From positions 1 through 32,000 of the forward strand of contig NJBF01000012.1 in assembly GCA_003144275.1 (NCBI GenBank): a DNA stretch of 32,000 nucleotides, read 5' to 3'. A program made the translations under genes and the position numbers. The number at the start of each line of letters is the position of its first letter. Positions within the stretch are counted from its first letter, which is position 1. This stretch comes from Candidatus Heimdallarchaeota archaeon B3_Heim. GTDB lineage: Archaea > Asgardarchaeota > Heimdallarchaeia > Hodarchaeales > Hodarchaeaceae. The notes below the pieces were generated by a model, which searched no databases, was not told the DNA's origin, and saw only the letters and a list, made by a program, of their open reading frames with translations. Below, in pieces: positions 12,326 to 26,577 of the stretch.

Positions 12326-13729
12326 TCATTTCCTTGGTGATATCATCTGAGAAGGGTCAAGTGCTGCATCGATCTCTTCTTCGGATAAAACCTTTCGTGC
12401 GAGTAATACTTCTTTCAATGTTTTATTGGTATTATAAGCTTCATGAGCGACTGCTGCAGCCTTTTCATATCCAATTAAGGGAGTAAGCCCTGTAATGAGC
12501 ATGAGATTTTGTTCTAAATCTTCTTTAATCCTTGTTTCATTTACAGCTAAACCTGAAATGCAATTCTTTGCAAAGTTTCGTGACACATTAGATAACAATT
12601 GAATTGACTGCAATAAATTGTAGATCATTATTGGCTTAAACACGTTAAGTTCGAAATTGCCCTGAGAACCAGCAAATCCGATAGCGACATCATTTCCAAT
12701 AACTTGAGCGACAACTTGAGTAACAGATTCGGACTGAGTGGGATTAACTTTTCCTGGCATAATGGAAGATCCAGGTTCATTAATTGGTAATATTAGTTCT
12801 CCTAAACCATTCATTGGTCCAGAACCTAACCAACGTATATCATTCGCAATCTTCATTAAACTAACGGCAACTACACGTAATAAACCACTCGTTTCAACAA
12901 TAGCATCGTGTGCGGCCAATCCTTCAAACTTATTGTCCCCCGTAATAAAATGTATTTCTGTAAATTTAGCTATTTCACTCGCAACACGTTTAGCAAACTC
13001 TGGATGTGTATTTAACCCTGTTCCCACAGCAGTTCCTCCGAGAGCAAGTTCATAGAGATGGGGTAGGGCATTCTCCACTCGTTTTATCCCCTTCTCGATC
13101 TGAGTGACATAACCAGAGAATACCTGGCCAAACGTAATTGGGGTTGCATCTTGGAGATGTGTTCGTCCAGTCTTTACTATATCTCGGAATTCTTCTTGTT
13201 TCCTTTTTAAGGCATCTTTCAGCATCTTAAGCGACGGAATAAGAGAAAAAAGTATGAGATTAACTGCAGATATATGCATAGCTGTAGGAATAACATCATT
13301 AGATGATTGAGATCGATTTACATGGTCATTAGGATGAACTGGTCTATTTGATCCAACAACACCTCCCATAATCTCATTGGCGCGATTAGCGATTACTTCA
13401 TTGATGTTCATGTTGGTTTGGGTTCCAGATCCTGTTTGAAAAATCATCAATGGAAATTGATCTGAAAAATTACCATCTATTACCTCTTGTGCTGCTTTAA
13501 TAATAGATTGAGCAATTTCTGAGGTTATTAACCCAAGATCTTTATTTACTTCAGCACATGCTCTTTTTACAATTCCTAACGCTCGAATAAATTCTTGGGG
13601 GAACGGAATGTGAGCTGATGATTCAAATGGGAAATTCTCAATGGAGCGCTGGGTTTGAGCTCCCCAATAACTTCCCTTAGGTACTCTGACCTCTCCTAAA
13701 CTATCTTTCTCAATACGAAATTCGGTCAT
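12326..13729 (-). CDS. fumC: Class II fumarate hydratase
   Basis: FRIEKDSLGEV, FQTGSGTQTNMN, HPNDHVNRSQSSND, GRTHLQDATP, GSSIMPGKVNP signature. Confidence 0.96.
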   Translation of the reverse strand: MTEFRIEKDSLGEVRVPKGSYWGAQTQRSIENFPFESSAHIPFPQEFIRALGIVKRACAEVNKDLGLITSEIAQSIIKAAQEVIDGNFSDQFPLMIFQTGSGTQTNMNINEVIANRANEIMGGVVGSNRPVHPNDHVNRSQSSNDVIPTAMHISAVNLILFSLIPSLKMLKDALKRKQEEFRDIVKTGRTHLQDATPITFGQVFSGYVTQIEKGIKRVENALPHLYELALGGTAVGTGLNTHPEFAKRVASEIAKFTEIHFITGDNKFEGLAAHDAIVETSGLLRVVAVSLMKIANDIRWLGSGPMNGLGELILPINEPGSSIMPGKVNPTQSESVTQVVAQVIGNDVAIGFAGSQGNFELNVFKPIMIYNLLQSIQLLSNVSRNFAKNCISGLAVNETRIKEDLEQNLMLITGLTPLIGYEKAAAVAHEAYNTNKTLKEVLLARKVLSEEEIDAALDPSQMISPRK

Positions 13730-13782
13730 TTATAACCCTCATTAATTGTTCATAGGAAGAAATCGACTCCTTGTTGAGATAT

Positions 13783-14547
13783 TTACGGAGTCAAATGCTG
13801 TTTCCGAATATTACCAATAGCTGTTCCAGGTTTTACTCCTTTGGGACATACTCTATTACATACGAAATGTTTTTCACATGCTGGTACTGCATTGCTTTTG
13901 GACACACGTTCCACAATACTACGTCGATGTTTTTCATCTACACGAGTATCAGCTATGAAACGATACGCTTTTGCCAAAGCTGTTGGACCAAGATAATGTG
14001 GATCAGTGGCGTTCACTGGGCAAGTCCAGCAGATCCCACATAAGATGCAGTAGACAAGATGTTCTATGGATCGAGCATCTTCAGGTGCTTGTAATGATTC
14101 AGGTTGAACATCGTTATACTCCCGTGCAAAGTAAGGTTGAACCTCCTCATAAAACTTCCAGAAAGGTTCCATTTCTACAACCAAATCCTTAATTACATTC
14201 ATATTTGGTAAAGGTTCAATAAGAATTTCTGTTTCTTCATTCCAATCGGATGGAACTTCTCCAAAGGTTAGTTCAGGAAGTTTGGGAGGTTTCTTTGTAG
14301 ATTTCACTGCAGCTACTTGTGTTCTACATGCTAGTTGGGGAAATTTATCAATAGTGATACCGCAAGATCCGCAAATAGCCCCTCTGCAAGCATAACGAAA
14401 TGCAAAACTTGAATCCAAGTAATCTTGAATATAAAATAATGCATCTAAAATACTCATTCCAGGTTTCAGAGGAATTTCATATCGTTCGTAGCGGGGGGTT
14501 TCTTCTGGATTTTTTCTAAATACCAAAAACTTCTGATTGATTACCAT
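13783..14547 (-). CDS. sdhB: Succinate dehydrogenase/fumarate reductase iron-sulfur subunit
   Basis: CRGAICGSC...C (2Fe-2S), CILCGICWTCP and C-x5-C-x3-CP clusters. Start moved from 14583 to ATG 14547, which follows a GGTGA RBS just after the sdhA stop. Confidence 0.93.
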   Translation of the reverse strand: MVINQKFLVFRKNPEETPRYERYEIPLKPGMSILDALFYIQDYLDSSFAFRYACRGAICGSCGITIDKFPQLACRTQVAAVKSTKKPPKLPELTFGEVPSDWNEETEILIEPLPNMNVIKDLVVEMEPFWKFYEEVQPYFAREYNDVQPESLQAPEDARSIEHLVYCILCGICWTCPVNATDPHYLGPTALAKAYRFIADTRVDEKHRRSIVERVSKSNAVPACEKHFVCNRVCPKGVKPGTAIGNIRKQHLTP

Positions 14548-14557
14548 TTTCTTCACC

Positions 14558-16306
14558 TTAATATTCCCTCGGTTTAGGCTCAAAAATACCCAGTTTTACT
14601 GGTTTTGTGAGCATTTCAAGATCCCCAGTATCATTTCGGATCACCATTGAGTGGACTAGATACTCCTCATCGTTTCGAGTAGGATAATCGGTACGAAAAT
14701 GTGCTCCACGGCTTTCTTTTCTCCACAGAGAGGCGAAAGCAGTTACTTCCGCTATATCAATCATATTCCGAAGTTCCAATGTACGGATCAATCCATAGTT
14801 AAACTTCCTATCCGCTGACGAAGTTATCTTAGAAAGCTGGACATTCTCAAATTCTTTCTGAAGACTCTTTAAATCATCAACAGCAAGTTGTAGTTCAGAT
14901 TCAGTCCGAAAAACAAAAGCATTCCGACTTAAAGTTTCACCCATAGCTTCTCGAATTTCCACTGGTTTTTTACCAGAATTTGCTTCCCATTTCTTAAACA
15001 AAGATTGAATTTTATCCAACATAGACTTTTCTGCAGCAATTATCTTTTCTTGCGAAGGACGCGAAGGTAGTCCACGCTCTAACATCTTTCGACCGACATA
15101 TCTTCCAAAAACAGCTGTCTCTAGTAAACTATTCCCCCCCAAACGATTTGCGCCATGAACAGAGACACAGGCATTTTCTCCTACCGCCCATAAGCCATTA
15201 AGAGAAGTTTCACAAAAATCACCCTCATATTTTGTACCAATGCCGCCCATACTATAATGGTGTCCTGCATGAACTGGTACTGGTTTTTCTATAGAATCTA
15301 CACCTGCAAAATCTATCGCAATATCTCTTATCCCTGGTAAACGCTCTTTTATCCGCTCAGCCCCTAAATGAGTTAAATCTAAATGAACATACGCGTTTTC
15401 AAATCCTCTACCTTCATTTATTTCCGTAGTAATTGCTCGTGCTACGATATCTCGAGGCGCGAGTTCTTTCGCTTCAGGAGCGATTTTCAACATAAAACGT
15501 TCCTTTTGGTTATTAAAGAGAAGTCCACCTTCACCTCGCGCACCTTCACTCATTAAAATACCTGATCCATATAGACAGGTGGGATGAAATTGGACAAATT
15601 CACAATCCTGCATAGGAACATTCGCACGAAACGCTGCACCAACACCATCACCAGTACAGATAATTGCATTAGTACTAGCCTCAAAAATACGCCCAAAACC
15701 ACCTGTGGCTAAAATAACGTAAGGAGCACGGAATATAACTAATTCTCCTGTGGTCATGTCAAGTGTAAGCGCACCTGTAACTTGTTTATCAACAGAAATC
15801 AAATCGATTAGGAAAAATTCATCACAAAAGGTCACTCCTTGTCTCACACACTGTTCATACAGAGTATGGAGAAGAGCATGACCAGTACGATCCGCAGCAT
15901 AGCAAGTTCTCGGAGAACCTGCACCTCCAAACGGCCTTTGAGCGATTTTTCCATCCTCAAACCGTGAAAATGGAGCACCCATACTTTCGAATTCGACCAC
16001 AATTTTGGGGGCTTCTTTTGTCATGAACATTACAACATCTTGATCTGCAAGGTAATCACTACCTTTTACTGTATCAAATGCGTGTTTTACAGGGTTATCT
16101 TCCTCTCCATCAGGATGATTTCCTAAAGCAGCATTAATTCCACCTTGTGCGGCCCCTGAGTGGCTTCTTACTGGTACAACTTTACTCACCAATGCAACTT
16201 TCCACTTTTTAGAAAGTTCTAAGCCAGCCCGTAACCCACTAAGTCCTCCTCCGACTATCAACGCGTCAAATTCTTTTACACTCAAAGAATATCCTTCCAA
16301 ATTCAA
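14558..16306 (-). CDS. sdhA: Succinate dehydrogenase/fumarate reductase flavoprotein subunit
   Basis: GGGLSG, RSHSGAAQGG (covalent FAD His), QFHPT, ELAPRDIVAR, HYSMGG, GANRLGGNSL, RKESRGAH. Exact TTG start uncertain. Confidence 0.96.
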   Translation of the reverse strand: MNLEGYSLSVKEFDALIVGGGLSGLRAGLELSKKWKVALVSKVVPVRSHSGAAQGGINAALGNHPDGEEDNPVKHAFDTVKGSDYLADQDVVMFMTKEAPKIVVEFESMGAPFSRFEDGKIAQRPFGGAGSPRTCYAADRTGHALLHTLYEQCVRQGVTFCDEFFLIDLISVDKQVTGALTLDMTTGELVIFRAPYVILATGGFGRIFEASTNAIICTGDGVGAAFRANVPMQDCEFVQFHPTCLYGSGILMSEGARGEGGLLFNNQKERFMLKIAPEAKELAPRDIVARAITTEINEGRGFENAYVHLDLTHLGAERIKERLPGIRDIAIDFAGVDSIEKPVPVHAGHHYSMGGIGTKYEGDFCETSLNGLWAVGENACVSVHGANRLGGNSLLETAVFGRYVGRKMLERGLPSRPSQEKIIAAEKSMLDKIQSLFKKWEANSGKKPVEIREAMGETLSRNAFVFRTESELQLAVDDLKSLQKEFENVQLSKITSSADRKFNYGLIRTLELRNMIDIAEVTAFASLWRKESRGAHFRTDYPTRNDEEYLVHSMVIRNDTGDLEMLTKPVKLGIFEPKPREY

Positions 16307-16545
16307 CTAATACTTAATAGACACTTCTATCATTCACAGCTATAATATATTTTTTCATTGAGAAGAAGGTAGAATTACTTTTTCTGTTAAGATTTCAAAA
16401 AACTTCTACGAAAATCGGTTTCTTCCGTATTTAAAGCATCTCCATATCTAGAATTAACAATAATTAGGTCTAGGTTGACTTACGAACCATAAGATAAATA
16501 AATAACATATAAGCTAATTCCATTTACTAATAGGAGTTGATACTT

Positions 16546-17049
16546 ATGGGTAATAGTGAAAAAAACCTTATGGCGGCTTTCGCGGGTGAGAGTCAAGCCA
16601 ATCGTAAATATTTAGCTTATGCTAAACAAGCGGATAAAGATGGACTTCCCCAAATAGGACGAGTTTTTCGAGCAGCAGCTGCGGCTGAAACCGTGCATGC
16701 ACATGCCCATTTTCGGACTGTCGGTGGTGTAAAATCTACTATTGAAAATGTTAAAGATGCTATAGCTGGTGAACATTATGAATTCACAACTATGTATCCA
16801 GAATTTCTCGCAGAAGCTCAGAAAGAAGGCAATAAACGTGCTGAACGAAGCTTTGATCTAGCTAATCAGGTCGAAAAAATTCATCACGAGTTGTATTCCA
16901 AAGCTTTGGAAGCAGCTGAAGCAGGCAAAGATTTAACTGCAGTTAAAATGTTTGTCTGCAATGTATGTGGATACACCGTTGAAGGTGAGGCTCCAGAAGT
17001 CTGTCCCATTTGCGGCGCTGTTCACGACAAATTCTTTGAGGTAGAGTGA
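16546..17049 (+). CDS. rbr: Rubrerythrin
   Basis: AFAGESQANRKY, ETVHA, GEHYEFTTMYPEF, EKIHH, plus rubredoxin-like CNVCGY...CPICG. ATG 16546 follows AGGAG (16532-16536). Confidence 0.95.
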   Translation: MGNSEKNLMAAFAGESQANRKYLAYAKQADKDGLPQIGRVFRAAAAAETVHAHAHFRTVGGVKSTIENVKDAIAGEHYEFTTMYPEFLAEAQKEGNKRAERSFDLANQVEKIHHELYSKALEAAEAGKDLTAVKMFVCNVCGYTVEGEAPEVCPICGAVHDKFFEVE

Positions 17050-17087: not shown

Positions 17088-17414
17088 CCGATATTCTGTT
17101 CCTAGATTTGGTAAATTTCGACAATTTTTTCTATTTTAGCAATTTGGCAAATGTAACACATACGCAATTTAATTATTGAGATAGCTCATTCGTGAGTATC
17201 TATCTCTGTTTAAAGAAAAGCTCAGGGCTAGTTGCAGTTCTCAATTCTAGACGTGTGAAAAATAACTAAAGTTTTTTTAAACCATGGAAAATTTATAAAT
17301 GAGAAATAGAATAGATATGAAAGCTAATAGGAAGAGAGCCCGATTAAAAGCAAATGTGTTCAATACCTACAACATCATACCTTCAATAATTTTGTTTGGT
17401 TAGTCGTTTTAGGT

Positions 17415-20400
17415 ATGATTTTTAGTATTTCGATATTTAGCTTAGGTAATCTTCCGTCTAGCCATCACACTGCTCCTAAAAATTCCGTGAATATTCTAAT
17501 TCTTTTAAAAAATGATGACTATGATAATAAGAGAAATAGGATGGAATTTAAACCAGTTTCTACCGAACTCAAAAATCTCCGACTTCAGCAACAATCGATC
17601 CCATCTTTTGGAGAAGAGCTGTATTCGATAAATGATACATACGGAATCACAACCTCAATGCAGTTTTTCCCAATTGCATTCTCTCCAAATGGATCTATTC
17701 TTGCCTCTATTAATGATAATCTATCCATCAGCTTATGGAATATCTCCTCTAATACAAAAATTAAAGATATTGGATTTCATTCTGCTCCTTTTGATTTTAT
17801 TGTATTTTCACCTGATGGTTCATTAATCGCTTCAGGGGGCGAATCTCCTGATTATTCTATAAAGTTATGGAATGTCTCTTCAGGAAATTTAGTAACAACA
17901 CTAACTGGTCATTCTAAGCCGGTAAAATCGGTAGATTTCTCTTCAAACGGTCTACTTCTTGCCTCAGGTGGAAGAGATAATAATCTAAAACTATGGAATA
18001 TAATGACAGGAGAAGTAAAAACAATTTCAGATGAGGGAAATTGGATTAATTCGATAGCTTTTTCTCCTACTGAACCAATTTTAGCAGCAGCTAATTCGAA
18101 CTCCGATATTACTGTATGGGAATTTACAAGTGGTACCCTACCGTTAAATGGAACAAAAATTGCTACCTTGAGTAACCACACACAAGCTGTCTATTCTCTG
18201 GATTTCTCTCCCAACGGACAAGTATTAGTTTCGGGTAGTAAAGATAAAACAATAAGACTTTGGGATATAACCTTATTAAAAGAATCTAGAACGTATACAC
18301 AAGAAATTATGTATACTTCATCAGAAATTAAATCAGTAGCTATGTCGGTAGATGGAACAACGTTTGCCTCAAGTTTCGAGGATCCATTAGAAGGACAATC
18401 CATCGTGAAATTATGGAATCGAACCTTTAGTCCTTTCCAACCTATAAATGCTAATTTATCAAGTCATCTGGATCAGATTCGATCTATAGTTTTCTCCCCT
18501 GATGCCTCGATTTTGGCCTCTAGTAGCTGGGATCGCTCTATCAAGATTTGGAATGTGATTCAAATTTCTAATGACCTTGATAATGATGGAATGGACGATA
18601 ATTGGGAGTCACTACATGGTCTCAATTCTACAGATTATTGGGACAAATTTGCGGATCTTGATCAAGATGGATTAACAAACAGAATGGAATTTTATTATAA
18701 TTTAAATGTAAGTAACAGGGATTCAGATGGCGATTCTCTCCCCGATGGCTGGGAATTTCTTTATACCCTTAATAATTCCAAGAATGATGCGAATTCTGAT
18801 TTTGATGAGGATGGCTTAACCAATTTTCAAGAGTATGAGAATGGAACTAATCCCATGAATCCGTTTGATGTATTTCTAGATCATGATGGTGACAACATGT
18901 CCACTGGTTGGGAAGCTTATTACGGTTTAGATCCCTTTAATCCTCAAGATGCTCAAATAGACCATGATTTGGATGGAATTCCAGATCTCTGGGAAGCTTA
19001 TTACAGATTAAATCCTATTGACTCTGAAGATGCACTCTTAGACAAGGACAAGGATGGAATGGATAATTTATGGGAACACCAGATGGGATTAGATCCTAGA
19101 AATAATAGTGATGCCTCTCTTGATAAGGATGGAGATAACCTCTTAAATCTGGAAGAATTTGATTTCAATTCATCTGCAATCTTATTGGATACTGATGGAG
19201 ACGGTATGAATGATTTTTATGAATATTCAAATGGATTTGATCCTCGGGATAAGTTTGACATTTATCAAGACTTTGATGGGGATGAGATGACGAATGGATG
19301 GGAAGCTTCTTATGGACTAGATCCCTTAAATTCCTCTGATGCTGAAGAAGATAATGATGGAGATGGAATACCCAATTTATATGAAGCCAATTATGGTTTG
19401 AATCCTATAGATCCTAAAGATGGAGTCATGGATCATGATGATGATGGAATGACGAATATTTGGGAACATCTTATGGGATTAGATCCTAGAAATAATAGTG
19501 ATGCCTCTCTTGATATGGATGGAGATAACCTCTCAAATTTGGAAGAATTTAATTTCACTTCATCTGCAATTCTTTTTGATTCTGATTTTGATGGCATGGA
19601 TGACTATTACGAGTCTCAAATGGGATTAGATCCAAATGAGGATGATTCCAATTTAGACAAAGACAATGATAGCATGCCAAATATTTGGGAATACAAAAAT
19701 TCTCTTAATGCAAATTTCTATAATGACAGTAAAATCGATTCTGATGGGGATGGAATTATTAATGTTGATGAATTCAACGAAGGGACCGATCCTAATAATT
19801 TTTGGAGTTTTCCATTGATTAGTTTTAGCCGAGTTCATTTACTAACAACATTATTTCTTGTTGTAGCTGGAGTGACTTTTTTTTCATTTTATATGTTCTT
19901 CCAAACTCAAAGACGTAATTTAATCGAAAAATCAATGGCTCCAGACTATCCTACTGCCCAATTGATCCTATCTTCAGGCTACAAGATATATCCTGAGTTG
20001 GTCCAATCGAAAAATGAGGCCATAGAAAAACTCCGTAAAGGACAGATACAATATCATCGAGGAAAGTTCCTTCAAGCAATTCAGTCATATGAACAAGGAT
20101 TGGCAGAGTTTGAACGCATTAAAAATGATCGATTCATTGCGGAATCGGTTTACCTAATTGCATGTAGTCAAAAGGAAATTTCACTTTTAGCTAAGGAAAG
20201 CTCTTTCTTAAAGCGATTTCCATCAACGATCCCTATTGGATCGAAAATTCATGGATTTGACCTTATGAATAAAGCGTTAGTAGCTGAACAGTCTCATAAT
20301 TGGGGAGCTGCAAGAAATTACTGGATAGCGGCGCAAAATACTTTTGATTTAAACCTGGAGTATCATACACAATGTCAAGGTGCGGTACTGGAATTAGATT

Positions 20401-20789
20401 TTCATTCTATACTAACAAATTCAGAGGATATAGATGAGAATCTATTCCTACAGAAGTTAGTTGAATGGATAGATCATTGTAAAGAAAAAAACTTATTTAC
20501 ACAACTTGCTCAAGGATATCTGTTACATGCAAGGTATACTTTTTCAAAATATGAGGTTGGTGAGGTTGAACAGTGGTATGACATGTGTATCTTGGTTTCA
20601 CGTGAAAATGGTTTGGTTAAGTATCTTAATTTGGCTCAAAATGGGAAAAAAAATCTGGAAAAATACAGAAAAAGAATTTCAGACTTACTGCAGGTAAAGC
20701 AAAGTTTAACTCCTGAACAACAAAAGGATCTATTCCGTGAATACATGCAAAAAGCACTAGAGACTATGGAAAATGATCAAATGGATTGA
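17415..20789 (+). CDS. Receptor-like membrane protein: WD40 propeller + DxDxDG (TSP3-like Ca-binding) stalk + TM + TPR-like domain
   Basis: Seven WD repeats (about 17660-18560), 16 DxDxD(G/N/S/E) repeats (about 18570-19806), TM HLLTTLFLVVAGVTFFSFYMFF (about 19835-19900), TPR-like LRKGQIQYHRGKFLQAIQSYEQG. The true start is uncertain. Confidence 0.85.
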   Translation: MIFSISIFSLGNLPSSHHTAPKNSVNILILLKNDDYDNKRNRMEFKPVSTELKNLRLQQQSIPSFGEELYSINDTYGITTSMQFFPIAFSPNGSILASINDNLSISLWNISSNTKIKDIGFHSAPFDFIVFSPDGSLIASGGESPDYSIKLWNVSSGNLVTTLTGHSKPVKSVDFSSNGLLLASGGRDNNLKLWNIMTGEVKTISDEGNWINSIAFSPTEPILAAANSNSDITVWEFTSGTLPLNGTKIATLSNHTQAVYSLDFSPNGQVLVSGSKDKTIRLWDITLLKESRTYTQEIMYTSSEIKSVAMSVDGTTFASSFEDPLEGQSIVKLWNRTFSPFQPINANLSSHLDQIRSIVFSPDASILASSSWDRSIKIWNVIQISNDLDNDGMDDNWESLHGLNSTDYWDKFADLDQDGLTNRMEFYYNLNVSNRDSDGDSLPDGWEFLYTLNNSKNDANSDFDEDGLTNFQEYENGTNPMNPFDVFLDHDGDNMSTGWEAYYGLDPFNPQDAQIDHDLDGIPDLWEAYYRLNPIDSEDALLDKDKDGMDNLWEHQMGLDPRNNSDASLDKDGDNLLNLEEFDFNSSAILLDTDGDGMNDFYEYSNGFDPRDKFDIYQDFDGDEMTNGWEASYGLDPLNSSDAEEDNDGDGIPNLYEANYGLNPIDPKDGVMDHDDDGMTNIWEHLMGLDPRNNSDASLDMDGDNLSNLEEFNFTSSAILFDSDFDGMDDYYESQMGLDPNEDDSNLDKDNDSMPNIWEYKNSLNANFYNDSKIDSDGDGIINVDEFNEGTDPNNFWSFPLISFSRVHLLTTLFLVVAGVTFFSFYMFFQTQRRNLIEKSMAPDYPTAQLILSSGYKIYPELVQSKNEAIEKLRKGQIQYHRGKFLQAIQSYEQGLAEFERIKNDRFIAESVYLIACSQKEISLLAKESSFLKRFPSTIPIGSKIHGFDLMNKALVAEQSHNWGAARNYWIAAQNTFDLNLEYHTQCQGAVLELDFHSILTNSEDIDENLFLQKLVEWIDHCKEKNLFTQLAQGYLLHARYTFSKYEVGEVEQWYDMCILVSRENGLVKYLNLAQNGKKNLEKYRKRISDLLQVKQSLTPEQQKDLFREYMQKALETMENDQMD
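18879..19658 (+). repeat. Intragenic tandem duplication, two 390-bp (130-aa) units
   Basis: Units 18879-19268 and 19269-19658; 43 identical nt at 19083-19125 and 19473-19515, with high similarity around them. Confidence 0.85.
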
Positions 20790-20900: not shown

Positions 20901-22643
20901 TTATGTTATTTTCCGTCTTTTTACATAAAAAGCTAAGGATACCATCGTGAACATAATGAGTTCCAATGGAATAAAAGACGCCTGGTTTGAATCTGTGTCA
21001 GTAGTAGAAGGTTCTGAAGTGGTTGTAGTAGAAGATTCAGGAGTAAAATCGATGGTAGAATTACTGAATTTTGTTACAAACAGTGATTTTACTGTCCCAT
21101 ATTCTGAAACTAATGTATGATTACTTGTTGGTAAACCTCCATTTGTATATCCCGTTATTATGATATCATTATCATCTAAAGTGATTTCGAATGCTCCATC
21201 ATAGCCAGGTCCACCAAAAAATGATGAATATAACAGGTCAGAACCATCAGCAGCTAAAACACTTACGAATGCATCATCATAATAATTATCTGGAGGGGTA
21301 TTATCTAGTGTATACATTGGTTTCACAGGAAAATCACTGGAATACGTGTGTCCAGTTATGTAAATATTATCATTTTCATCTAATACTATGTCCCGACAGA
21401 ATTCATAGCTAATACTTCCACCAACGTAAGTTGAGAATAGAATACTTGATCCATCTGCAGAAATTTTAGTAACGAAAATATCAGCGAGAATATTTTCCCA
21501 AAATCCACCTTGAAAATTTGGATTATATGAATTCGCGGTAACAGGGAAATCACTTGACCCAGTATGGCCTGCAATTATGACATTATCTGCACTGTCTATA
21601 GCAAGTGCATTAATATATTCTCCTCCAGTTCCTCCAAGATAAGTCGAATATAATAAATCAGAACCATCAGCAGAGAGTTTGCTCAAAGTTAATTCGGCAC
21701 CTTTTAAATCTTCTCCGGGTAGAGATCCTATTCCGCCATTAGATGTTGTATTCAAGGCATCAGGCGTAACTGGATAGTTATTTGAGCTAGTAGTTCCACC
21801 AATATAGATATTTCCAGCACTATCGAGATCAATCTTGGGATTCATATCCCACTGACTTCCACCAATGAATGTTGAAAATTCTAATGTTGATCCATCAGAA
21901 GACAAACAGGCAACAAAGAGGTCTTCATGTCCTCCATGTGTTCTGTTATATGCGCCAAGCGTTGTTGGAAAATCACTCGATTCAGTATTCCCTGCTAAGT
22001 AAATTCTGTCAGAACTATCAACTCGAATATTTATGATAGAGTCTTGGCCACTTCCACCAATCAAAGTGGAAAAGAGAAGTTCCGATCCATCGGCAGAAAG
22101 TTTCGTGATGACGGCATCAAAATCCCCACCATTATATATTCGGTCATAAGCCCCAACGGTTGTTGGAAATTCGATAGAGGAGGTATAACTACCAAGAATA
22201 ACATTGTCATTGCTATCAAGGGCTATACGGACAATGCCATCACCAAAATTTCCTTGTGTTCCTCCTATAAATGTGGAAAAGATCAGTTCGGATCCATCAG
22301 GAGAAAATCTTGCAACAAAGATGTCGCTATCACTATCGCTTTTTGTCCGATTAAAGGCATTAGCTGTGGTCGGAAAATAAGAAGTAGACGTCCAACCTGC
22401 GATAAAGATGCTATTATCACTTCCGATAGCAGTCGAAAAGCTCTCATCACCAAAGATACGAGCTCCAATATACGCGGTAAAATTTACTGCTAGGTTAAGA
22501 CTTTCTATAGATTGTGTTTTTTGAACTTTTCCAAGACTTAACTCACTATGTGAATTATTCATTATTCCAACTTCGAGATCACTGATTAATGTCATATTAA
22601 AAATCAATAATGCCGAAGCGAGTAAAAAATATTTACTTTTCAT
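20901..22643 (-). CDS. SBBP-repeat beta-propeller surface protein with Ser/Thr linker and C-terminal TM anchor
   Basis: Signal peptide MKSKYFLLASALLIF; repeats (F/Y)ST(F/Y/L)(I/L/V)GG...D...DSxxNIYIxGxTxSxDFP; STTTTSEPSTT linker; TM followed by KRRK. Confidence 0.85.
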   Translation of the reverse strand: MKSKYFLLASALLIFNMTLISDLEVGIMNNSHSELSLGKVQKTQSIESLNLAVNFTAYIGARIFGDESFSTAIGSDNSIFIAGWTSTSYFPTTANAFNRTKSDSDSDIFVARFSPDGSELIFSTFIGGTQGNFGDGIVRIALDSNDNVILGSYTSSIEFPTTVGAYDRIYNGGDFDAVITKLSADGSELLFSTLIGGSGQDSIINIRVDSSDRIYLAGNTESSDFPTTLGAYNRTHGGHEDLFVACLSSDGSTLEFSTFIGGSQWDMNPKIDLDSAGNIYIGGTTSSNNYPVTPDALNTTSNGGIGSLPGEDLKGAELTLSKLSADGSDLLYSTYLGGTGGEYINALAIDSADNVIIAGHTGSSDFPVTANSYNPNFQGGFWENILADIFVTKISADGSSILFSTYVGGSISYEFCRDIVLDENDNIYITGHTYSSDFPVKPMYTLDNTPPDNYYDDAFVSVLAADGSDLLYSSFFGGPGYDGAFEITLDDNDIIITGYTNGGLPTSNHTLVSEYGTVKSLFVTKFSNSTIDFTPESSTTTTSEPSTTDTDSNQASFIPLELIMFTMVSLAFYVKRRKIT

Positions 22644-24633: not shown

Positions 24634-26577
24634 TCAGAATGAATCCTGCCCATATTGCTTGTAATTTGCTACTACATTCTTGATAAAAGTCCAATTCAAC
24701 AATTGGATGTTATCTAGATTCTTTGACCCAATTTTTAGTTCAAAATTTTCCCCTAAATTCTTGACATCGTCAGGTTCAAGTTTTAAATGTATCAATACTA
24801 ATTTACCCTCATTATTCAATTCGAAGCGTGTATTAAGGCAAAGCCAATGAAAAAAATCTATTGATTTGTCAATATTTACTTGATTTATCGATTCCCAAAT
24901 CGTGTATACAGATGGAACAAGGGTCTCGAATTTTCGTTTAAGAAAAGAATAGATATCTGACGATCTTGGATCAAGAATGATCTTGCATACTTCTGTAGCC
25001 CATTCTTGGTGATAAAAGGAAATTATTTCAAGTTTTTTAAGGCTACTAGATGAACTCTCATACTTTATAGGGGGTAATAATCTAACGAAAGGATTTGTCC
25101 AATGAGCTACTGTGGATTTAACTTTATTTTTCCAATCTCCTTCAGGATATAATTCAGATAATTCTTGTTTAAACGAATTTTCAAGAAATAAGATGAGTTT
25201 GAGTTGTAAGATGTTTTTTTCACCGCGTAATGAATACAATAGTGAAATTAATGAATAAAGTACAAGCGGGAATGTATTATCAATGACAGATTTTTGTAAA
25301 TTTGCCAAGGCGACTTTCAGAAAACCCAAAGAAACAACCATTGCCCAAGGTGACTCGAATGTTTTGTAGGGTTCAGAAGGGCGATTAGTCCATGGAATAA
25401 TGGTAACAAGAACATCGAGTCCTACCCATTTTACCCATTCAGAAAAATATGGGCGCCAATCATCCCAAATGCTGTTTAAATCGAATTGAAGAGCAACTTC
25501 AAAAGGTTGTATTTCCAGTTGTAATTTTTCTACTAATGCGAGAAATTCTTGCTTTCCTGGTGCGGATTGTGGGGAACTCTGTATCACTGACTGTGTGAAT
25601 GCAATGAGAACTGACCATGATTGTGTCCCTGCATCAGTGACCATTTTCTGGATTTTTTCAAGAATTTCGAATGGGACCAAGTGCACATCTTCAATTATAA
25701 CAAGCCATCTAGGGGTTTCTCTCTCTTTTGACATATTACTTGATAAAATAGAAAATAGGGAATCCCACTCTACCTCACCCATATCTTTGGGATTCTCAAT
25801 AAATAAAACTGGTGTCTGGAATAAACGCACCCACCAACTCGCAATATATAATAATAACCGACTCTTCCCCATCCCTGTTGTAGCAAATAGTCCTGCTTTT
25901 CCGCGAGTCTTTAGAACTTCTTGCATCGGTTGAATCAAAGATTTGAGAGGGGGTACGGACAACGATGCATCCATTAAGCAAAAATCTTGTAATCCCCGTG
26001 TTCCGTATGCTAATTTTAATAGACGATCTTCTAACCATTTTCTAGAGTAATCTTCCTCCAATAATGCATCTAATGGTTTAATAAATTGTTTGATCCATTC
26101 ACGAGGTGAAATTGACTGTTCTATTGGTTCTGGTAAAGGAAGAAATATGTTTTCTTCCATCATTGGTGTATTTTTTCCTACAAAAAAATTGAATGATCGT
26201 ATACTAGGTGGTAATTCATCTGGTCTTTTAGGAAGAGAAATTGGTTCAGACAATAGGCCACTGGGAATGCGTACTTCTGAACCGACAACTGATCCTGCTC
26301 CAGAAAGTTGAATATAATTTATTTGATCCATTTCATAGGCTTCTATGAACTTTAGGGTAGTAATTCCGAATTCAGTAAGTTCGTAATATGATTCCTTCTT
26401 CTGTATTAAGTTTGATTCAACTAGTTTTTTAATATGAAAACTAAATTTATTACTTCTAATACCCTCAAAGCATGCTAATAATTCCGAAAAGGACTTTCTA
26501 CTGAAATTAAGCTGCTTTACAACTTCAAAGCGAATTTCTTGACTAAGAATATCAAAAACTTTGAGAGTTTCTTTCAT
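24634..26577 (-). CDS. N-terminal winged-HTH + P-loop (STAND/AAA-like) ATPase protein
   Basis: ArsR-like FDILSQEIRFEVV...SFSELL...SNKFSFHIKKLVESNLI; Walker A ATTGMGKS; Walker B LVIIED; long helical C-terminus. Confidence 0.7.
   Translation of the reverse strand: MKETLKVFDILSQEIRFEVVKQLNFSRKSFSELLACFEGIRSNKFSFHIKKLVESNLIQKKESYYELTEFGITTLKFIEAYEMDQINYIQLSGAGSVVGSEVRIPSGLLSEPISLPKRPDELPPSIRSFNFFVGKNTPMMEENIFLPLPEPIEQSISPREWIKQFIKPLDALLEEDYSRKWLEDRLLKLAYGTRGLQDFCLMDASLSVPPLKSLIQPMQEVLKTRGKAGLFATTGMGKSRLLLYIASWWVRLFQTPVLFIENPKDMGEVEWDSLFSILSSNMSKERETPRWLVIIEDVHLVPFEILEKIQKMVTDAGTQSWSVLIAFTQSVIQSSPQSAPGKQEFLALVEKLQLEIQPFEVALQFDLNSIWDDWRPYFSEWVKWVGLDVLVTIIPWTNRPSEPYKTFESPWAMVVSLGFLKVALANLQKSVIDNTFPLVLYSLISLLYSLRGEKNILQLKLILFLENSFKQELSELYPEGDWKNKVKSTVAHWTNPFVRLLPPIKYESSSSSLKKLEIISFYHQEWATEVCKIILDPRSSDIYSFLKRKFETLVPSVYTIWESINQVNIDKSIDFFHWLCLNTRFELNNEGKLVLIHLKLEPDDVKNLGENFELKIGSKNLDNIQLLNWTFIKNVVANYKQYGQDSF

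Follow-up and report, generated by a model that had tools for sequence, protein, structure and literature searches.

What kind of protein joins a WD40 propeller, an acidic repeat stalk, a single transmembrane (TM) helix and a large helical tail, and on which side of the membrane does each part lie? The question is raised by a gene in a 32,000-nt stretch of contig NJBF01000012.1 from Candidatus Heimdallarchaeota archaeon B3_Heim (the whole stretch is hereafter called the window; G+C 33–42%). The gene, P0001, is the longest open reading frame (ORF) of its neighbourhood (17415–20789, plus strand) and encodes 1124 amino acids (aa), in which a WD40 propeller, a stalk of 16 repeats, one TM helix and a helical tail of 295 aa follow one another. 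The initial annotation of this DNA had listed seven WD40 blades, 16 acidic repeats, a single TM helix with QRR after it and a helical, TPR-like tail of ~295 aa, and every item was borne out. We conclude that P0001 is probably a type I (N-out, C-in) single-pass membrane protein and a member of a modular, receptor-like family specific to one genus of Hodarchaeales.

The family is defined by the tail. Searching 1.84 billion representatives with the tail gave 107 matches at E ≤ 1e-3, of which 35 had E ≤ 1e-30. The tail is almost always C-terminal, in proteins of 500–1400 aa, and it is conserved at this end of ~60 membrane-protein clusters. WD40 is carried by 40 of the matches, many of them with called signal peptides. 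In most WD40 members the WD40 region spans ~650 aa, a length that suggests two propellers, and the stalk has just 4–8 repeats; P0001 represents a rarer form, with a single propeller and a long stalk. Other tail-bearing members have SBP_bac_5, NosD/beta-helix or unrecognised ectodomains. One of these, the paralog P0003 (1044 aa), is encoded on another contig of the same genome. Besides a clear signal peptide, SBP_bac_5 (203.9 bits) and two TSP3 repeats, it has the juxtamembrane motif FWSFP(I/L)ISFS, the TM helix and the tail (35% identity, E 1e-55) in common with P0001. In a tree of tails, with midpoint root only, the non-WD40 types are scattered among the WD40 types, implying at least three ectodomain swaps. 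The tail of P0001 groups with that of P0006, another single-propeller protein. Hence the idea, put forward in the initial annotation, that Asgard genomes might hold the same TM helix and tail beneath exchanged ectodomains proved correct: because one tail is shared by WD40, SBP_bac_5, NosD and unknown types, the predicted modular receptor family exists.

Of 22 genomes from one Hodarchaeales genus, 15 hold this family, at 1–5 copies each, and no strong tail match was found in ~180 other genomes sampled from the phylum. A word-indexed homolog search with residues 800–1124 (TM helix and tail) returned the sister-strain protein only, and a single-tail search for related loci in genome contigs returned no relative. 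In public records, family members go only by the names 'WD40 repeat protein' or 'hypothetical', under the labels Hodarchaeales, Heimdallarchaeota or Promethearchaeota. Neither these names nor the literature searched on Asgard and Hodarchaeales WD40, TSP3 and surface propellers contained a description of the architecture. What is new here would be the tail family and the unusual extracellular use of WD40; the component domain types are already known.

WD40 propellers are classic interaction hubs and are usually intracellular. Topology was judged across the family. Most full-length relatives start with a basic stretch followed by ~20 hydrophobic residues, resembling a signal peptide. Three WD40 members are called without one, and for each of them an in-frame upstream ATG and a classical signal peptide were found; the IMG call of one such member is 48 aa longer. 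Thus, public annotation hides the export of these WD40 members, whose gene calls start at an internal ATG; signal peptides of the family are often lost to gene calling in this way. The upstream stretches that were missed lie at L008:2878–3000, L010:2762–2905 and L011:2857–3000. In the 15 residues on either side of the TM helix, counted over 41 members, the ectodomain side holds 61 basic (K+R) and 90 acidic (D+E) residues, and the tail side 187 and 35, respectively. N-X-S/T sequons follow the same division, with 360 in ectodomains versus 236 expected and 24 in tails versus 34 expected; those of P0001 itself lie in the propeller and stalk, with none in the tail (Table 1). In P0003, the WD40 position is occupied by SBP_bac_5, a domain of extracytoplasmic solute-binding type that Pfam describes as 'bacterial extracellular solute-binding proteins'. 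Taken together, the signal peptides, the positive-inside bias, the sequon pattern and the solute-binding paralog are four independent signs that leave N-out, C-in as the one sensible topology for the family. In P0001 the WD40 most likely lies outside and the tail inside, a placement that rests on homology and statistics. The initial annotation had also set the WD40 outside the cell, a claim that the family's signal peptides, TM-flank charges and sequons support.

The P0001 gene contains no internal stops, and comparison with the sister-strain gene L001 (protein 90% identical) indicates purifying selection, with a ratio of non-synonymous to synonymous substitution rates (dN/dS) of 0.27 overall, 0.15 for the WD40 and 0.20 for the tail. 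The synonymous rate (dS) versus L001 is uneven over 17658–20786, at 0.076 in the WD40 and 0.24–0.43 in stalk, TM helix and tail, which suggests that recombination or gene conversion took place, either inside the gene or between paralogs. Cysteines are distributed unevenly as well: there are none in the ectodomain (residues 82–800, ~720 residues) and four in the tail (830–1124), where C158 in tail numbering is nearly invariant in the family.

The propeller is well supported. WD40 (PF00400) reaches 161.5 bits (cutoff 27) across residues ~82–382, in five matched stretches, and seven FSPxG-type blade motifs can be read in the P0001 sequence. An AlphaFold2 (AF2) model of residues 43–412 (predicted local distance difference test [pLDDT], 82; predicted template modelling score [pTM], 0.81) contains ~27 strands over residues 68–380. 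This number fits a closed propeller of seven four-stranded blades. The model also places an N-terminal strand (its residues 26–31) at the conserved FGEELY motif, and this strand may be the blade-closing (velcro) strand of the propeller.

The stalk that follows is an array of calcium-type repeats. The pattern D.D.D.{6}E occurs exactly 16 times in residues 387–786, at a spacing of 22–27 residues, compared to 0.19 matches in shuffled stalk, and Pfam assigns TSP3_bac (PF18884) here. A diverged internal duplication of 300 nt (18798–19097 versus 19188–19487; 390 nt apart, 68% identical) spans ~four repeats, indicating that the long stalk grew by block duplication. Tandem Repeats Finder reported nothing in the ORF, as the stalk repeats are too diverged at the DNA level. 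Presumably calcium stiffens the stalk, and both propeller and stalk are probably N-glycosylated.

Pfam finds no match above threshold in the last 295 residues; with the single sequence, TPR_2 reaches 16 bits, below its cutoff of 27. An AF2 model based on a 46-sequence family alignment is all-helical, with 14 helices (pLDDT 91, pTM 0.86), and fits a right-handed superhelix of helix-turn-helix pairs. Its fold matches in Foldseek, exhaustive VIA and ESM-atlas searches are TPR solenoids only, such as APPBP2, APC subunits, TSK, PlcR, LGN/Pins and Rap, and the best VIA matches have Z scores of 15.0, 14.9 and 14.8 over 238–245 residues. Searches with the family profile recover consensus TPR proteins (E 5e-39), though through only one unit (positions 33–72), and LGN/Pins. 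At the weak end of the phmmer list obtained with the tail are TPR_12 proteins that are soluble and in many cases end in a MarR-type winged helix. The early description of the tail as TPR-like is thus supported, and the tail is conserved. In its fold and by distant homology the tail is TPR-like, yet it is a distinct family with motifs of its own: APDYPTA (after the TM helix), RFP and NWG. A reading of the tail as an MIT domain (PF04212) was rejected; the score of 19.9 bits versus 30 represents a generic cross-hit of TPR-like hairpins. Soluble proteins of 600–750 aa that combine TPR_12 with a C-terminal MarR-type winged helix (P0059, P0067 and P0080) are widespread in related Asgard families and are the tail's nearest relatives outside the membrane family.

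How translation of P0001 starts is less straightforward. The called ATG (17415) sits mid-way in a hydrophobic, signal-peptide-like stretch, FVWLVVLG-MIFSISIFSLGNL. This stretch runs on in frame upstream to a stop at 17328–17330 and aligns with the signal peptides of relatives; the coding region therefore probably starts before 17415. With the table-11 start set, the ORF becomes 17343–20789 (1148 aa) and begins at ATT. A 34-codon ORF in another frame, with ATGs at 17299 and 17317, resembles a basic signal-peptide n-region (MKANRKRARLK), an arrangement also present in L001. A –1 slip at A_AAA_G (17346–17350) could join this ORF to the main frame. A TATA-box-like motif nearby may serve as a promoter element. 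Between the window and L001, a 56-nt block (17295–17350) is invariant, whereas the intergenic DNA before it differs at ~14% of positions. The block takes in ATG 17299, ATG 17317, ATT 17343 and A_AAA_G, with the TATA-like box at its edge.

L001, which lies on an ENA contig, is the closest relative and has the same start arrangement, except that ACG stands at the position of ATG 17415. When 21 genomes of the genus were searched at the DNA level with the start region, none yielded an ortholog, which leaves L001 alone for the start-codon question. In one study of marine sediment, contigs from two runs have an L001-like allele, which may not be independent of L001, and no indel in 17299–17420. Recurrence of the arrangement in L001, together with these further contigs, makes a sequencing error unlikely. 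Over 17331–17414, three synonymous changes and one non-synonymous change separate the window from L001; over residues 1–42, there are six non-synonymous and three synonymous changes (dN/dS 0.5). Most likely the signal peptide of P0001 is translated, by initiation at ATT 17343 or, less likely, by a –1 slip from the ATG frame; by either route, the P0001 copy itself would be exported.

Table 1. Features of the P0001 gene and its start region (positions in the window)
Feature	Position	Strand	Remarks
TATA-box-like motif TTTATAAA, candidate archaeal promoter element	17292..17299	+	Read directly; just upstream of the conserved block
34-codon ORF, MRNRIDMKANRKRARLKANVFNTYNIIPSIILFG and stop	17299..17403	+	Frame one base right of the main ORF; ATGs 17299, 17317
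In-frame upstream extension (M)KSKCVQYLQHHTFNNFVWLVVLG	17343..17414	+	Starts at ATT 17343; n-region and first half of h-region
h-region FVWLVVLGMIFSISIFSLGNL of presumed signal peptide or anchor	17391..17453	+	Spans the called start
Called ORF P0001	17415..20789	+	From first canonical start, 1124 aa; this ATG is ACG in the sister strain
Linker with N-P-x-F-G-x-x-L-Y motif, residues 43–81	17541..17657	+	Motif kept in WD40 members
Seven-bladed WD40 beta-propeller, residues 82–384	17658..18566	+	Pfam, AF2 model; 8 N-X-S/T sequons, no cysteine
16 TSP3/EF-hand-like D-x-D-x-D-x6-E repeats, residues 387–786	18573..19772	+	26% D+E, 13 sequons
Juxtamembrane motif FWSFPLISFS, residues 796–805	19800..19829	+	Family form FWS(V/F)P(L)xS(F/L)S
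TM helix, residues 807–829, then QTQRRN	19833..19901	+	One hydrophobic segment
Predicted cytoplasmic TPR-like alpha-solenoid tail, residues 830–1124	19902..20786	+	14 helices, no sequons
Sole sequence-canonical TPR unit, tail positions ~33–72	19998..20117	+	Family profile versus consensus TPR proteins; TPR_2 weak, 16 bits

The genes upstream of P0001 are those of ordinary metabolism. A class II fumarase, an SdhB-like Fe-S protein and an SdhA-like flavoprotein are encoded at 12326–16306 on the minus strand, and a rubrerythrin gene (16537–17049, plus strand) lies between this Sdh cluster and P0001. SdhA of the window is 88–89% identical to its counterparts in Candidatus Hodarchaeota metagenome-assembled genomes. 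Immediately downstream and convergent (20901–22643, minus strand) is a gene for a 580-aa SBBP beta-propeller-repeat protein, another anchored surface propeller, which opens with a signal peptide, includes a Ser/Thr-rich linker and ends in a TM helix followed by KRRK. Farther on, a 647-aa protein (24634–26577, minus strand) has an N-terminal DUF7347 match only; it was considered as a relative of the tail and rejected (hhalign probability 0.1). Elsewhere in the same genome, upstream of the paralog on contig C51, L007:147–3416 (plus strand) encodes 1089 aa with ~nine repeats of ~110 aa, each with a DEDGD-type loop. This protein has a signal peptide and a Thr-rich linker, and its end (PGW, TM helix, RRLKRR) resembles a PGF-CTERM archaeosortase signal. 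For P0001, an archaeosortase-type sorting signal of this kin was rejected, because its tripartite FWSFP, TM helix and RR are followed by 295 conserved residues.

How might such a protein work? A signal peptide would carry the N-terminus across the membrane, and the WD40 propeller would be displayed outside on a calcium-type stalk of 16 TSP3/EF-hand-type repeats. The conserved juxtamembrane motif and the one TM helix would connect the stalk to the tail. In the cytoplasm, the 295-aa TPR solenoid, which has no enzymatic domain, would most likely be a docking platform. The propeller could bind an external ligand or partner, and the tail could link this event to proteins of the cytoplasm, whether to pass on a signal or to anchor or position the protein. 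The function of P0001 may thus be ligand or partner sensing, or anchoring via the TPR tail. The cell–cell or partner contact suggested in the initial annotation would be one possible role. The paralogs with SBP and beta-helix ectodomains suggest that binding of a peptide or glycan is at least as likely as binding of a partner cell.

Several observations weigh against this picture. The TSP3_bac score of the stalk barely exceeds its cutoff (25.9 versus 25 bits), and the positive-inside signal of P0001 alone is weak, with R806 outside versus R833, R834 and K839 inside. Across five family loci there is no conserved neighbouring gene, and no operon or tail partner was identified there. At the N-terminus, no ATG, GTG or TTG lies in frame ahead of the h-region, in the window copy and L001 alike; the basic n-region that has an ATG is in a different frame from the main ORF; and if only canonical starts are allowed, M43 would become the first residue of the L001 protein, which would then have no signal peptide and not be exported. 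The P0001 copy might, then, have lost the start of its signal peptide and be decaying or re-purposed, with translation from ATG 17415 or M43 and a WD40 that is cytoplasmic or a protein that is non-functional. Such a loss would fit the missing canonical start in both strains, the ACG that replaces ATG 17415 in the sister strain and the fast evolution of residues 1–42. Yet the whole gene, propeller and tail included, is under purifying selection in both lineages and free of internal stops. The in-frame stretch upstream of the called start has changed mainly at synonymous sites and aligns with the signal peptides of relatives, and the block that holds both ATGs, the ATT and A_AAA_G is invariant despite the divergence of the intergenic DNA nearby. 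On these grounds we regard loss of export as unlikely. We consider it very improbable that the protein is inserted the other way round, with WD40 and stalk in the cytoplasm and the helical tail outside. The usual intracellular location of WD40 domains would suit an inverted protein, as would the called ORFs of P0001 and several relatives, which lack a signal peptide. But a signal peptide begins most full-length relatives, and where it seemed to be missing it turned up upstream; moreover, basic residues favour the tail side, sequons are in excess in ectodomains and scarce in tails, and one paralog has SBP_bac_5 in the same position.

Granted an external propeller, P0001 could still be a passive surface component, an envelope or adhesion 'lollipop' whose tail only anchors or positions it (for example, on the cytoskeleton or in protrusions) and passes no information across the membrane. 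The tail does lack an enzymatic or known signalling output domain, the best NCBIfam matches of the TSP3 repeats, MtsD and CglD, are surface proteins of adhesion and motility, and the convergent downstream gene encodes another anchored propeller. In addition, a cultured Lokiarchaeon, from a different Asgard lineage, has no ordered S-layer but complex surface proteins (PMC9834061). However, a tail of 295 aa that is under purifying selection and conserved across swapped ectodomains far exceeds what an anchor needs. The paralogs with SBP_bac_5 ectodomains seem better suited to sensing or capturing ligands than to adhesion, and the relatives of the tail, in fold and in sequence, are mostly sensor or regulator TPRs. 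A purely passive role is thus doubtful, though by no means far-fetched. A quite improbable alternative is a proteolytic switch, in which FWSVPLxSFS at the outer edge of the TM helix is cleaved and ligand binding frees the ectodomain or the tail, as in regulated intramembrane proteolysis (RIP) of anti-sigma factors. Strong conservation of this motif, with the helix breakers P, S and H where the membrane begins and a basic cluster beyond, is what a cleavage site might look like; the soluble relatives of the tail are TPR and winged-helix regulators, and one fold match of the tail is the TM anti-sigma factor DdvA (Z 11.7). Against cleavage, no linked protease gene is present in the loci examined, the tail has no DNA-binding domain, and the motif may be purely structural.

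Returning to an exported, exchangeable-head receptor as the favoured reading, some phylogenies put Hodarchaeales next to eukaryotes. Cultured Asgard archaea have no ordered S-layer, and their many unidentified surface proteins are thought to mediate the cell–cell contacts that are central to eukaryogenesis models (PMC9834061). By all indirect signs, the whole family sets WD40 outside an Asgard cell, with exchangeable heads there and a conserved TPR platform inside. Its members are therefore testable Hodarchaeales surface candidates, each with a defined ectodomain for a ligand search and a defined tail for a partner search. Tentatively, and as a possibility rather than an expectation, we propose that Hodarchaeales hold non-enzymatic type I receptors in which swappable heads on calcium stalks share one TPR platform, that these are an archaeal counterpart of the adaptor-based receptors of eukaryotes, used for syntrophic contact or surface sensing, and that the signal peptide of P0001 is made via the ATT or a –1 frameshift.

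Known systems share parts of this layout. MtsD (NF047639) and CglD (NF033765), TSP3-repeat proteins of Myxococcus, have arrays of D-x-D-x-D-G acidic loops like those of P0001, and they are secreted or surface proteins linked to cohesion and motility. MtsD is the best NCBIfam match of P0001, with eight matched stretches. Its score of 92.2 versus a cutoff of 800, and that of CglD (21.1 versus 400), are far below the equivalog cutoffs, indicating that only the repeat is shared. Unlike P0001, both are bacterial and have neither a WD40 head nor a TM helix with TPR tail. Highly repetitive WD40 propellers of prokaryotes have very regular blades, as P0001 does, and PorE is a periplasmic WD40 and TPR protein of type IX secretion (PMC5053529, PMC12773672). 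PorE resembles P0001 in its modules and shows that, in prokaryotes, both can function beyond the cytoplasm. A TSP3 stalk, a TM helix and a cytoplasmic tail are absent from PorE, and of the two only P0001 has its TPR module across the membrane from the WD40.

The tail shares its fold with TPR_12/MalT-type sensors, with the Asgard TPR and MarR/winged-helix proteins (P0059, P0067) and with RRNPP proteins (PlcR, Rap), at VIA Z scores of 12–15 and ESM-atlas TM-scores of 0.6–0.68; for the Asgard soluble TPR proteins, sequence homology to the tail is also detectable (E 1e-9 to 1e-15). These proteins are soluble and have DNA-binding or kinase outputs. The tail, in contrast, is membrane-tethered, has no output domain, stays below cutoff with every Pfam TPR model and bears motifs of its own.

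A further parallel in layout is offered by eukaryotic adhesion receptors: integrin alpha has a calcium-binding propeller, a stalk, a TM helix and a tail, and thrombospondin has the type 3 calcium wire. The common plan is an external propeller head, a calcium-dependent spacer, a single TM helix and a non-enzymatic, adaptor-recruiting tail. Yet the propeller of P0001 is WD40 rather than FG-GAP, its tail is a 295-aa TPR domain rather than a short peptide, and no homology was detected. Integrin-type membership was rejected, given that Pfam finds no FG-GAP or integrin tail and that the propeller is WD40. The likeness to eukaryotic adhesion receptors drawn in the initial annotation therefore stands for layout and fails for descent: with no homology detected, and with a family limited to one archaeal genus in the genomes searched, the resemblance to integrins reflects analogy, not ancestry. 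Restricted to a single genus and assembled from domain types that are already known, the family is an invention of its lineage and not a forerunner of the receptors of eukaryotes.

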